Source: Fimicolochytrium jonesii
Lineage: Eukaryota
Assembly (NCBI RefSeq): GCF_025526975.1
Contig: NW_026515671.1
Coordinates: forward strand, 1,674,001 to 1,738,000
Direction of reading: 5' to 3'
Length of the DNA stretch: 64,000 nt
The notes beneath the pieces are model-generated. The model ran no database searches. It saw only the letters and a list, made by a program, of their open reading frames with translations, and had not been told where the DNA came from. Both the position numbers and the translations under genes were made by a program. The first letter of the stretch is position 1; each line of letters starts with the position of its first letter. Of the stretch, positions 57,469 through 64,000 are shown in pieces.

Positions 57469-58074
57469 TTAGGACGTGGAGAGCAACTGTGATTCCTTCA
57501 GATGGGACTTACGGGAAACGCGGATCGTTAGCGTGGTGGCGGTTGTTGTCGCCTGCATACCATCAACGTAGTCCTTGGCTTTTTGAACCGCCTGCTTTGA
57601 GACTGGAAGACCGTACTCTGTGGCCAATGTTTTGATGACATGATGCTCGTGTCCTAGGTCGTCCTTCAGTTTTTGGACGGTGTTTGCATCCAACAGCATT
57701 TCTTTGTTTTGGAAAACCTCCACTAAATAAGACGGGTCAGTCGAAACGTCCTGAGTATTGTATAAATCTATGCACCTGCCGGTCTGACTAGTGTGATTAG
57801 CATTGTCATACGTGAGTATGATGTTGTTATAACGGAGCACAAGGTCTTTGGCGTTGTTCATTTGATCAGCAATGGCCTGAGATGTCTCTTCATTTGTGAT
57901 GCCGGGGAAGACTGTTGGTTTGTTGCGAATGTCGGCAGCTTTGAACTGACCGCTACTGGGGAACTCCAACTTCGCAGTTACTTGAGTAGCCATTTGGGAT
58001 CGGAAGGAAGTGAGAATGCGGCAGGTTTCAATGTTGGGATCCTCCACGAAGGAGGAGGGGTTGGGTTTCATCAA
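57469..58074 (-). CDS. Hypothetical protein or gene/transposon relic
   Basis: 201-aa ORF (frame open from ~58176) with protein-like composition and more A/T-rich codons than neighbouring genes; no family recognised. Confidence 0.35.
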   Translation of the reverse strand: MMKPNPSSFVEDPNIETCRILTSFRSQMATQVTAKLEFPSSGQFKAADIRNKPTVFPGITNEETSQAIADQMNNAKDLVLRYNNIILTYDNANHTSQTGRCIDLYNTQDVSTDPSYLVEVFQNKEMLLDANTVQKLKDDLGHEHHVIKTLATEYGLPVSKQAVQKAKDYVDGMQATTTATTLTIRVSRKSHLKESQLLSTS

Positions 58075-58263
58075 CCGTCCTTTTATTGACCTACTGGCGA
58101 ATGAGTTGTTCCCGCTGCGCGAAGTGGCAGGAATAATGAGATTGTCATTCTCATTTGTGTACCCACAGGTAGTAAGTCATGCTCGTAACCGTTACGCGAA
58201 ACGCACCAGCACTGGCTCATGCGACGACGATACCGCGCGTGCAGCGGCGACATCCGGGCGTGA

Positions 58264-58490
58264 CTAGAAATGGGTAACTCGTGCTAAATGTGGGTAGCTC
58301 ACCTCAAGAATAAGACTTTTTTACAGCCAAAGTGAACCATTTGATTAACAAACCTAACCCCTTTGCCTTCGGTGAGTCGGCCTTACCCGGCCTCCTACAA
58401 TCAGGGTCTACTCGCTCCGCTCGGCAGCTGCCTAACTAGTCTAACCCTAACCCGAGTTACTCACATTTAGCACGAGTTACCCACTTCTAG
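58264..58490. mobile_element. MITE-like non-autonomous DNA transposon
   Basis: 37-bp inverted repeats at 58264-58300 (CTAGAAATGGGTAACTCGTGCTAAATGTGGGTAGCTC) and 58454-58490, 3 mismatches, around a non-coding interior; TA or CTAG duplication at the ends. Confidence 0.8.
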
Positions 58491-58714
58491 TCAATCCCGC
58501 GACATCCTCGCCGCTTACATAATCTGGACTCTGACTCACCTCGCCGCGAATCCTCACAAAAGTTCGACAGCGCGGGTCTTCGGGTGACACTATTCTGGGA
58601 CCGATGGACTTTCGACCAAAGTTTCTTTTCCGGGGTTCGGGAGAAGCATTCCTCCAAAGCTTCGGTTACTATCAATAAACAGTGGGAAGCTTCGGAGAGT
58701 GGAGTGAAAAAAAG

Positions 58715-60282: not shown

Positions 60283-62287
60283 ATGTGGGACCCATACGGC
60301 ACCCAACAGCAGCAGCAACAGGCCGCAGGGGCAGGTGGCGATCCACAGAAGACGACGTTGTGGATGGGCGATTTGGAGCCATGGATGGAGGAGAATTATA
60401 TCAGGAGTTTGTGGTAATGTTTTTTGTGTGATTGGGGGTTGACTTCATTGTGGGGATTGTGTATTGATGGGTTTTGTGTGTTAATAGGGCGGCGATGGGG
60501 GAGCAGGTTAATGTAAAGATGATTCGGGATAAGATTACTGGGTAAGCGTTGGTGTGAGGTTTGCGGGAATATCGAGCGACAGGGAGTAATGATGCCGGGA
60601 TGGCCGCCATCGGTGTTGTTTCGCGTCGGAAGGGGCATTCCGAGTGCGGACAAGGGCGATGAATGTCGCCGGAGGTGCAAAAATGATCCCGCATGTCATC
60701 AAAATGTCCCATCCGCCGTGCGTCCCTTCTTTGTATCCTCAAGACCGAGCCCGCTGACAATCTCCTCTCATTCACAGACAAAACGCAGGCTACTGCTTCC
60801 TCGATTTCCCCACCAACCAATCCGCCAACCGCCATCTCAATAATGTGAACGGCAGCCTGATACCTGGGACGAACCGAATGTTCAAGTTGAACTGGGCGTC
60901 GGGTGGAAGAGATATTAGTACGAGGTATGAGATTTGTTCGGGTGGTAAGGAGGGTTTTCTTGCTGATGCTGATACTACGCTTTACCGCCCTGGTCTGGTA
61001 GGGAAGAGCGAGGCCCGGAGTTTTCGGTGTTTGTTGGAGATCTTGGACCTGAGGTTACCGATGCCGTTCTACTGGTATGTCTGCGAGAATCGTCATCATT
61101 AGACGAGCTTGCGATGTACTCATATCACCCTCTACTTCTTTCAAAAAGGCAACGTTTCAACAAGCCCGCTTCACAACCTGCAAATCAGCGCGTGTGGTCA
61201 CTGACCCAGCCACCGGCGCATCGCGTGGTTATGGTTTCGTCAGGTACGTCCACCCATCCTCCTCACTATCCGTTTGTCCCAACCTCCGCTCCTTCACTAA
61301 ACAATCCACATCGTCTCCCCAGATTCACCGACGAAGCCGAACAACAGCGCGCCCTTACAGAAATGCAAGGCGTGTACTGCGGCAACCGCGCCATCCGCGT
61401 CTCCGTCGCCACGCCGCGCAACAACACCGGAGGCGGAGGAGGGATGAGAGGTGCGGCGCAGCAGGGTTATTATCATCCGGCCCAGCAGCAGTATGATGCG
61501 AATAATACGACGGTGTTTGTTGGGGGCTTGGATGGGAATATCTCGGATGATGAGTTGAGGAGGTATGTTCGATGGGAGAGATCTCTTGTTCCGCGGTGGA
61601 CGCGACACGCTTTGAGTGGTTGATTGATTGATTGATTGAACCTTTATTTCTTCGGCAGTTATTTCCTCCCATTCGGCGAAATCGTGTACTCCAAAATCCC
61701 ACCCAACAAAGGCTGCGGGTTCATACAGTTTGCCCACCGCCAGTCCGCCGAGATGGCTATCATGCAGATGAACGGCGCTATCATCGGTAAAATCACGAAC
61801 TCCCCTCTTCTCTTTCCCCACCCCCCACAATCCCACTAACCCTCCGGTCCTATTCCTAGGCGGCATCCGCGTCCGCCTCTCCTGGGGCCGCACGCAACCC
61901 TCCACCCCCAAATCCGATCCCTCCTACCGCTCCTCCGCCCCCTCCTCGCCCTACATGTCGCACACCCCGCCCTACGGCACCTCAGGCGGCCCGCCAAATC
62001 TGCATTTCAACCCGATGACGATGATGGGCATGCTGGGCCACCACCCGCATCACCATCATAACCAGCAGATGCAGATGCAGATGATGCATCAGATGCATTT
62101 GCAGCAGCAGCAGATGGGGATGGGGATGGGTGGGCAGAGGGGGGTGGTGGATGAGCAGCAGCAACATCGTAGCGCCACTTCTACTGGTGGTGCCACTGGC
62201 GGTGCTGGTGAAGAGGCGAGTGAGGAAGAAGGGTTTGCGAGGAGGAAGGAAGATGGGACTGGGAAGAGTGAGCCGCGGGCTGCGTAA
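60283..62287 (+). CDS. Triple-RRM RNA-binding protein (Nam8/Ngr1/TRNAU1AP family), multi-exon
   Basis: TTLWMGDLEPWMEENYI, AGYCFLDF, FKLNWASGG, FSVFVGDLGPEV, SRGYGFVRF, NNTTVFVGGL, KGCGFIQF, VRLSWGR; Q/H/M-rich tail. Confidence 0.93.
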
Positions 62288-62695
62288 GGCGCGCCCCCAT
62301 ACTATATTTACGTCGGGGCGCGGAGACGGAAAGTGGGAGGTCGGAGCCCCAACAGCAACACACAGCGGGAAGAACCCAAAAGCGGGCAGATAGCCCCCGG
62401 GGTTTATAGGCATAGCAAAATAGTATTACAACTGTCTCACCCCGCCGCCGCCCGTTGAAAGGAAAGGCATACCATTACAACAAAGCAAAGCCATTTTGTG
62501 AACGTTGAAAGAGGGCATTGGGGATATCTATTGCTGTAGACGTGCGGAAAAAAAAAGCATCAACGCGCAGTCCCAGGTATCCAGCAGTATCCTGACCGTG
62601 CGGAAACATGAAAGATACCATATGTAATCAGATACCATTGATGAATGTCATTACACAGCTTTATGTTCGAACAGTTTTGACTGTTTCCCGACAGC

Positions 62696-62769
62696 TACAA
62701 GTTGCCATCATCGGCGACGCCTCAGGCAGAGGTACAATGATGTGGATGGCAGATAACCACCACGGAAAA
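62696..62769 (-). ncRNA. Candidate Fanzor omega-RNA scaffold / transposon right end
   Basis: Starts ~24 nt after the Fanzor stop. Self-complementary TGCCATC...GATGGCA stem encloses a CCTC-TGCCT-GAGG hairpin; ends in TA. Boundaries inferred by analogy to characterised Fanzor1 loci. Confidence 0.55.
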
Positions 62770-62792
62770 TGGGATGGGGTGAGGATTCTAGA

Positions 62793-63643
62793 CTACCTAC
62801 GGTTACGGGAGAATACGTCTGGTCTGCGGCCATTGCCAAACACCACCGAACGCACAATCGAGAGGAAATTCTTGGTGCTTAGGACGTCCCGATTGTGCAC
62901 TCTCATCCGTAGTGGTCGTCTTCCAGGAATCTCAAATGGCGTCCAGTCTTGGTTGATACATTTGGGGTTGGGGCAACCCACCAATCCATGGACGTATTCC
63001 ATTCTTCCCTTTCGGGCTTGCCACGGCCGAGGTGACAGCCGGGGTCGGATGTTTTTCTTCACACGCCCGTGGCAGTCTGGGCACACGGAAGACGTTCGAT
63101 ACTCATCTAACAAGTAGCATGGAATGCTGTTTCTTGCAAAGAGGGTGCGGAATCTGATTTCCATGATGAGTTAGCATATTAAAATACTTAAAAAACAATG
63201 ATGGTCACTCACCCCTTGGTCTTTGATGACTCCTGAAAGCGCATGGTTTTTCCAGCGTCGCTCCAATCACCCAAGATGACGGCAAAATGCTTTCCATACA
63301 GGCGTCGCATGTTCTTGATGAGCTTGCTCTCAGACTTTTGCCGCAGTGAGAACGCCTTGAATCTGCGAGCGACGTGAATCTCATCCTGGTAAAACTCATC
63401 CAGGGCGGGATCTGGGATATGGATGTCAGCCCATGTATTACCAAATTTGAAGACAAAGCATGATACATCATACCCGCATGTTCGTAATCCACAATGAACG
63501 CTGAGAACGCCTCAATGTCCATGCTCTTGTGCGACGGAATATGTGATTCCATCTCAGCGATGCCGGCATTGATCTTTCGCTCTGTCATGTCTCGTTGAAA
63601 GTACCGAGACTTTGTCTCGACCGCCCGTTGATTGGATGTGTAT
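62793..63643 (-). CDS. Fanzor1-type (TnpB/Cas12-related) RNA-guided nuclease, C-terminal ~243 aa; exons 63643-63474, 63411-63213, 63153-62793; 5' part not in window
   Basis: Spliced frame is intact: YTSNQRAVETKSRYF...LDEFYQDEIHVARRFKAFSLRQKSESKLIKNM...VILGDWS...TKG|FRTLF...YLLDEYRTSSVCPDC...VHGLVGCPNPKC...HNRDVLSTKNF...RPDVFSR. These are RuvC-II (E), zinc-finger and RuvC-III (D) motifs. Introns of 62 and 59 nt have GT-AG ends and CTRAC branch sites. Confidence 0.88.
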
Positions 63644-63682
63644 CTGGTATGGGGTGGTGCATTGTGAGATTACTACTGCCCT

Positions 63683-63878
63683 GCTGTCCCCGCTGTCCCC
63701 GCTGTCGCCGCTATCCCCGCTGCCCATCATCGGCGACGCCTCAGGCAGAGGTACAATGATGTGGATGGCAGATAACCATGCCCCTATCCCCGCTGTCGCC
63801 GCTATCCCCGCTATCCCCGCTGTCGCCGCTGTCGCCGCTGTCGCCGCCGCTATCCCCCCTGTCGCCGCCGCTGTCCCC
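63683..63878. repeat. 9-bp GC-rich minisatellite (GCTRTCSCC)n, ~14 units, interrupted by a 53-55 nt insert
   Basis: Units gctgtcccc/gctgtcgcc/gctatcccc read directly at 63683-63718 and 63783-63878. Confidence 0.9.
63724..63778. repeat. Exact 55-nt direct repeat of 62705-62759
   Basis: CCATCATCGGCGACGCCTCAGGCAGAGGTACAATGATGTGGATGGCAGATAACCA occurs identically at both positions. Confidence 0.97.
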
Positions 63879-63949
63879 GGTTTCCGAGTTATACAGCCCG
63901 TAGTGCAACATATGACCGTAACCATGTCTGTGTTCCATAGACGTCATCA

Positions 63950-64000
63950 GACACTGTGTCCGAGTGGTTAAGGAGTTTGCCTCGAAAGCAAATAGGCTTT
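63950..64000 (+). tRNA. tRNA-Ser(CGA), 3' end beyond the window
   Basis: GACACTGTGTCCGAGTGGTTAAGGAG (acceptor 5' strand, A-box/D-arm), then anticodon stem TTTGC-CTCGAAA-GCAAA (anticodon CGA at 63983-63985), then the start of a long variable arm. Confidence 0.88.

Follow-up and report, generated by a model that had tools for sequence, protein, structure and literature searches.

The window analyzed here, a 64,000-nucleotide stretch of a Fimicolochytrium jonesii contig (NW_026515671.1, positions 1,674,001 to 1,738,000), carries close to its right-hand edge the back half of a Fanzor1-type gene on the minus strand, with a predicted guide-RNA end past its stop codon and with a rearranged intron and a putative tRNA gene on its upstream side (Table 1). 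A multi-intron RNA-binding gene occupies the plus strand at about 60300-62100; two of its exon frames match RRM_1, and the Fanzor remnant is oriented toward the 3′ end of this gene. We take this gene to be NAM8/NGR1-like. Farther away, two 46-nt arms that are 89% complementary and 153 nt apart (58255-58499) may make up a miniature inverted-repeat element that has no relation to the Fanzor end; it is adjoined by a 235-codon stop-free frame (57469-58176, minus strand) with no Pfam match.

Table 1. Features at and around the Fanzor1-type gene, in window coordinates
Feature	Position	Strand	Basis or remark
Predicted 15-nt guide (host flank)	62681-62695	-	inferred from SpuFz1 layout
Predicted omegaRNA scaffold, 75 nt, with TA at the right end of the element	62696-62770	-	contig ends, length, motif
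omegaRNA second stem (predicted)	about 62706-62742	-	pair probabilities 0.35-0.49
omegaRNA hairpin 1 (predicted)	62742-62763	-	pair probabilities 0.63-0.86
Exon C: RuvC-II Glu, four Cys of zinc/TNB domain, RuvC-III Asp, stop	62793-63153	-	
Intron 2, 59 nt, GT-AG (GTGAGT..CAG)	63154-63212	-	branch-like GCTAAC at 63175
Exon B (199 nt): RuvC helices, ILGDWS..TKG	63213-63411	-	
Intron 1, 62 nt, GT-AG (GTATGA..CAG)	63412-63473	-	branch-like GCTGAC at 63430
Exon A (170 nt)	63474-63643	-	annotated start MTERK at 63588
Third intron, 3′ end, CAG acceptor at 63644	63644-63668	-	follows RuvC-I exon in paralogs
Minisatellite B and junction to native intron	63669-63723	-	TRF 63679-63722
Perfect 55-bp direct copy of 62705-62759	63724-63778	-	100% identical repeat
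Minisatellite A, G-rich 9/12-bp units in element sense, within third intron	63779-63879	-	TRF 63780-63879
70-bp spacer, no Fanzor coding, no left inverted repeat	63880-63949	.	no tblastn match
tRNA gene cut by window edge, anticodon CGA (Ser) by eye	63950-64000	+	Rfam RF00005

Joined in the order A, B, C, the three exons yield a stop-free frame of 242 codons plus a stop codon (62795-62793). The initial annotation had placed three minus-strand exons and two canonical introns of 62 and 59 nt exactly here, and every motif it named (YT..QR..ETK, ILGDWS...TKG, LDEYRTS-CPDC, HGLVGC...C, and NRD) was found in the spliced frame; the open frame it described was likewise uninterrupted, at 242 codons instead of approximately 243 residues. 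Its view of the gene as hidden by splicing did not hold, since residues 19-242 are identical (224/224) to a public JGI/NCBI model, P0033 (EV422DRAFT_554766; KAI8824572.1; XP_052928458.1), on a 1,787,891-bp F. jonesii contig, and the GenBank/RefSeq annotation of KAI8824572.1 already uses both intron junctions. Among 59 F. jonesii models, all predictions from one annotation, junction 1 was spliced alike in 39 of the 41 models covering it and junction 2 in 40/42. Metagenome contig pieces of related copies, taken from four public DNA runs, revealed four indels (+4 in intron 1, +3 in intron 2, -2 past the stop, and +6 in an exon); the sole exonic indel is in frame, and the frame-breaking +4 sits in intron 1. 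The GC content was 39% in intron 1 and 31% in intron 2 versus 49-53% in the exons, and in both introns a branch-like hexamer stands 18-21 nt upstream of the acceptor. The exact match to the public model, the paralog junctions, the indel pattern, and the GC contrast together put the spliced frame beyond chance and confirm the two-intron structure as a prediction from gene models and indel patterns. In one contig of run X2 (depth 3), the branch-site A of intron 1 (63426) was altered, which may reflect a sequencing error or a dead copy. The initial annotation had overlooked the third-intron acceptor at 63644, the 55-bp direct repeat, the minisatellite, the tRNA gene, and the element end.

The Fanzor1-like identity suggested by the initial annotation was upheld by exon C and by a full-length paralog, and sequence and structure searches with these returned Fanzor1 proteins as best matches. 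Exon C alone matched SpuFz1 (PDB 8gkh; E 4.7e-30) and PpFz1 (9cf0; E 3.8e-11), the third and last match at E up to 10 being an aspartate carbamoyltransferase regulatory chain (E 0.41). The paralog P0050 (761 aa) aligned with SpuFz1 over residues 129-759 (E 4.6e-149), and Foldseek comparison of its AlphaFold model (mean pLDDT 72; under 50 over residues 1-130) with the PDB gave seven best matches that were all Fanzor1 (best match: E 1.9e-51; TM-score, 0.84; 42% identity). The spliced frame corresponds to SpuFz1 residues about 402-633 and, as had been proposed, retains the catalytic E and D: the relocated RuvC-II glutamate before the zinc finger (LLDE, codon 63104-63102) aligns with SpuFz1 E541, and the RuvC-III aspartate (NRD, codon 62888-62886) aligns with D606. 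The four-Cys zinc/TNB domain is also present (Cys 147, 150, 183, and 188 of the spliced frame). The Pfam match to PF07282 was weak (E 0.034, under the cut-off), and Pfam searches of the exons and the paralogs gave sub-threshold matches only. In a tree of 19 C-terminal regions, for which the bootstrap had not settled, the window protein fell within an F. jonesii clade (100/99) that was sister to a Gaertneriomyces protein (98/99). Among representatives clustered at 50% identity, a profile search found 1108 relatives with E no higher than 1e-30, indicating that Fanzors of this kind are common. Collectively, sequence and predicted-fold comparisons support membership of the window gene in the Fanzor1 (Spu-1 type) protein family.

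The right end of the element was defined by four contigs, short pieces from two runs (three from X1, one from X3), which stop matching the window at 62695/62696 and have unlike flanks, none of them continuing into the window's own flank; this places the end at 62696, with the terminal TA. The 75 nt from 62770 to 62696 equal the SpuFz1 scaffold in length, and scaffold positions 2-8 (UUUUCCG), compared by eye, are identical to those of SpuFz1. Residues U5, C6, and C7, reported to contact the protein in the SpuFz1 scaffold (PMC10432273), are all kept in the candidate. The first hairpin, also compared by eye, has a similar loop and a different stem that still pairs. Xu et al. describe the first hairpin as conserved and the rest of the omegaRNA as variable (PMC11423790), a pattern that the unlike second stem of our candidate fits; this stem is one of several possible folds. 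The fold energy of the scaffold was ordinary (z -1.2, with 51/500 shuffles as good; z -1.0 in another test), so the omegaRNA call stands on position, length, and motif. At the DNA level, then, the locus carries a right end of the Spu-1 type, with its end at 62696, 75 nt, and the SpuFz1-type 5′ motif and first hairpin. No Rfam family was found for the candidate, and the predicted guide had no other match in the window with fewer than 3 mismatches. A Spu-1-type left terminal inverted repeat after CA (TAM CATA) was not found in this copy. One of the four end contigs (X1) diverges behind 62734, after roughly 40-46 bp of the end; it may represent a left end or another element, and the divergence length would fit a left terminal inverted repeat of that size.

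The part of the protein that should precede exon A is absent from the window, in which neither the RuvC-I aspartate (D383 equivalent) nor the REC and WED domains were found. A tblastn search with 249 proteins (E up to 1e-3, low-complexity filter on) gave no match upstream of 63680, and with the filter off only the repeat read-through of P0037 reached farther upstream. At the acceptor of exon A, PFR and YT are joined in 26 of the 28 covering models, where the third intron follows the RuvC-I exon. A contig of run X4 matches the window to 63668 and then continues as plain C-rich intron, as in the read-through of P0055 and P0037. Another contig (X2), covering 63595-63745 with 1 difference, bridges the 63668 junction and extends only 22 nt into the 55-bp copy. 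The copied stretch is the central part of the omegaRNA candidate and leaves out its 5′ motif and last 9 nt; it folds no better in place than shuffles (z +1.2) and probably does not function as a scaffold. Neither metagenome contigs nor viral contigs yielded a locus (0 in each) when searched for exact matches to parts of the 55-bp repeat. A counterpart exists in P0244 (KAI8815600.1), on another contig of F. jonesii: this model contains the N-terminal domains followed by DPG and ERPF, then reads through 67 codons of the minisatellite A units, and its last residues are the translated 55-bp piece; the neighboring KAI8815599.1 is a C-terminal part. As read from these predicted proteins, a subfamily has this rearranged intron in common, and the P0244 locus retains the upstream exons. 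P0037 carries such repeats in the same intron in opposite orientation. Models P0037, P0055, P0056, and P0244 all break or read through at the post-RuvC-I intron, with a minisatellite there in either orientation, and this intron may be a rearrangement hot spot.

Beyond minisatellite A, the 70-bp spacer was considered as a degenerate left end and rejected, as 185/1786 background windows resembled the expected left repeat equally. The tRNA gene that follows the spacer, on the strand opposite to the Fanzor gene, matched RF00005 over model positions 1-49 of 71 (25.9 bits, E 0.011, under the gathering score of 29), and ARAGORN reported 0 tRNA genes in the window; the gene is likely host flank. We discounted contig matches to 63946-63991 and to the minisatellite, attributing them to tRNAs of other organisms and to GC-rich repeats. 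A tRNA-like sequence also appeared, by eye, to lie ~70 bp from the right end of an S. punctatus locus in the PMC10432273 supplement; two cases of a tRNA at ~70 bp from a Fanzor element may be chance.

We consider it highly probable that the locus represents the 3′ half, introns included, of a Spizellomyces-type Fanzor1 gene, most likely a dead, 5′-truncated copy from a multi-copy transposon family that has kept its predicted guide-RNA end, with a probable truncation point near 63880. The initial annotation had allowed RuvC-I and REC/WED to lie beyond the window or to be lost, and the second option is the better supported: there is no upstream tblastn match, a tRNA gene begins at 63950, and protein searches and cluster look-ups found only P0008, P0035, and P0033 on the 1,787,891-bp contig, none of them an N-terminal-half Fanzor model. 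The shorter minisatellite A array (100 bp here versus 67 codons in P0244) also points to loss. Lacking the first catalytic aspartate, REC, and WED, this copy most likely makes no working nuclease. The RuvC-I aspartate was essential in ApmFNuc, in which D324A abolished cleavage (Jiang et al., PMC10530073).

That the gene is instead whole, with RuvC-I, WED, and REC exons beyond 64000 and a long third intron that encloses the minisatellite and the 55-bp copy as well as a tRNA gene in antisense, appears improbable. P0244 does show the same repeat structure with a RuvC-I exon upstream, the acceptor at 63644 is intact, the frame is stop-free, and the window stops just 120 bp beyond the repeat. However, a whole gene would require a tRNA gene within an intron, the array is shorter here, and the public model begins at MTERK on a contig with no N-terminal-half model, whereas the P0244 locus has adjacent half-models. 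We regard as very unlikely a scenario in which the truncated copy was kept because it is expressed, its 224-aa RuvC/TNB fragment or its intronic omegaRNA copy acting as a decoy that damps active Fanzors. The open frame and the six other models of 187-227 aa that start at the same exon (MTERK or MRERK) would suit a decoy, as would the report that the omegaRNA first hairpin binds RuvC and TNB, the retained part (Xu et al., PMC11423790); yet the identity to most paralogs is 86-95%, so that youth alone predicts an open frame, a shared start can come from gene callers breaking at the third intron, and the 55-bp copy has neither the 5′ motif nor better folding than its shuffles. It is hardly credible that the upstream repeats are an assembly artefact or that the spacer is the degenerate left end of an internally deleted two-ended element, despite the identity of the 55-bp copy to the locus's own 3′ end and a CATA at 63914 in the spacer, since the independent X2 contig bridges 63668, although reaching only 22 nt into the copy, P0244 shows the other junction, and the CATA site ranks 142/341 for likeness to the expected left end.

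The truncated copy belongs to a family that is most likely large and multi-copy, as is expected of a Spu-1-type element. We counted 81 distinct F. jonesii protein models on many contigs, 40 of them with the last exon; these are models and not DNA copies, and split copies count twice, so the figure overcounts. All motifs from REC to RuvC-III were present in 7/81, and several of these seven contain internal gaps or are fused to host tails. Of 257 pattern matches obtained in a protein scan of metagenome contigs, none was confirmed. P0069 (EV422DRAFT_623327) joins a tyrosine-recombinase-like region (PF00589, E 5.6e-4, under the cut-off) to a Fanzor WED/RuvC-I part and is probably a nested insertion. 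Models P0014 and P0021, in which Fanzor sequence is spliced to host exons encoding CUE and CHZ domains, are likely gene-caller fusions.

The residues corresponding to the TAM contacts of SpuFz1 have changed in part. P0050, as aligned, retains Q129, Q130, and Y345, and N133 is replaced by Ala and N385 by Gly in the three full-length models aligned to SpuFz1. Of the 16 models with coverage of the loop, 14 have Gly at the R96 position and two (P0037 and P0048) have Arg; in other relatives with a residue at this position, it is Arg or Lys in 24/29. Xu et al. reported a REC-loop Arg as essential in GtFz1 (PMC11423790), and we infer that it occupies the same position as R96. Provided that the gene models are right at the loop, these changes predict a changed TAM or attenuated activity. 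A broader picture can be offered only tentatively: F. jonesii might harbor an intron-rich family, sister to SpuFz1 and recently expanded, with a 75-nt omegaRNA, in which most members lack R96/N133 and would have a changed or relaxed TAM or attenuated activity, truncated copies would serve as guide donors in trans, and one subfamily would have spread with its own scaffold copy in an intron.

By analogy with SpuFz1, a full-length family member would bind the 75-nt right-end scaffold RNA, with its guide taken from about 15 nt of flanking sequence, and would cut the matching empty site, whose repair would recopy the element and aid its persistence. The subfamily may first have gained, in the post-RuvC-I intron, a G-rich minisatellite in inverted orientation together with a 55-bp copy templated by its own 3′ end, a structure that template switching within the element during break repair could have produced. 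This copy would then have lost everything upstream, probably within the minisatellite, and, in the absence of the first catalytic Asp, REC, and WED, would be unable to cut or recognize DNA. If transcribed, the locus could donate guide RNA in trans, as a ghost element might. As a listed and probably dead fragment, the locus itself is of little importance. The present analysis adds the right end at 62696, the 75-nt omegaRNA candidate, the second locus with the rearranged intron, and the lack of the TAM-contacting Arg in most paralog models. The family is a close relative of the best-studied eukaryotic programmable nuclease and has a predicted short guide scaffold and natural changes at TAM-reading positions; it could show how the target range of Fanzors shifts, or supply an ortholog that reads a different TAM.

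Compared with known systems, the locus is a known kind of gene and an already listed entry: Supplementary Table S2 of Yoon et al. 2023 (PMC10711439), in the portion covered, includes the same 224-aa protein KAI8824572.1 as an NCBI Fanzor HMM hit and putative Fanzor, among 33 F. jonesii rows. That source, as far as covered, gives the table row only and describes no locus, intron, element end, or RNA. In the covered parts of the literature (including PMC10432273, PMC11423790, PMC10530073, PMC10711439, PMC3627910, and PMC12247965, with supplements partly covered), the family's element end, RNA, and intronic self-copy were not described, and no main-text description of an F. jonesii Fanzor family was found. 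The species name had no match in the supplements of Saito 2023 (PMC10432273) and Jiang 2023 (PMC10530073) as far as these were covered, where tables may use assembly ids.

Intron gain by Fanzors has been published (Jiang et al. 2023, PMC10530073). In that report, CrFNuc of Chlamydomonas shares with our gene the spliceosomal introns in a Fanzor1 gene and the relocated RuvC-II glutamate, but it is Helitron-associated and comes from a different host lineage. The ghost Spu-1 elements described by Saito et al. 2023 (PMC10432273) resemble this copy in having a right end with an omegaRNA candidate, no working nuclease, and possible guides in trans; scaffolds from these ORF-less loci were able to support editing by SpuFz1 in human cells. 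The ghosts, at about 550 nt, have both inverted repeats and no ORF, whereas this copy still has 242 codons and yielded no left end. In S. punctatus, 19 of 42 loci are full-length, and partial copies are the majority.

Another close known system is SpuFz1/Spu-1 itself (Saito et al. 2023, PMC10432273; Bao and Jurka 2013, PMC3627910; PDB 8gkh, 9ceu-9cez), to which the full-length paralog is ~42% identical with the same fold. Our locus has the equivalents of E541 and D606 and, past the stop, a 75-nt region ending in TA; in both genomes there are many full and partial copies, and no transposase was seen in the element. There are also differences: this copy is without SpuFz1 residues 1-401, the F. 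jonesii models have a longer, Pro-rich, low-confidence N-terminus and the substitutions at N133, N385, and (in most models) R96 noted above, and the scaffold is unlike that of SpuFz1 beyond the first hairpin. Moreover, SpuFz1 is one intron-free ORF, whereas at least three introns interrupt the 3′ half of the gene in the F. jonesii family, and the two provide a clean pair for intron gain in a mobile nuclease gene.
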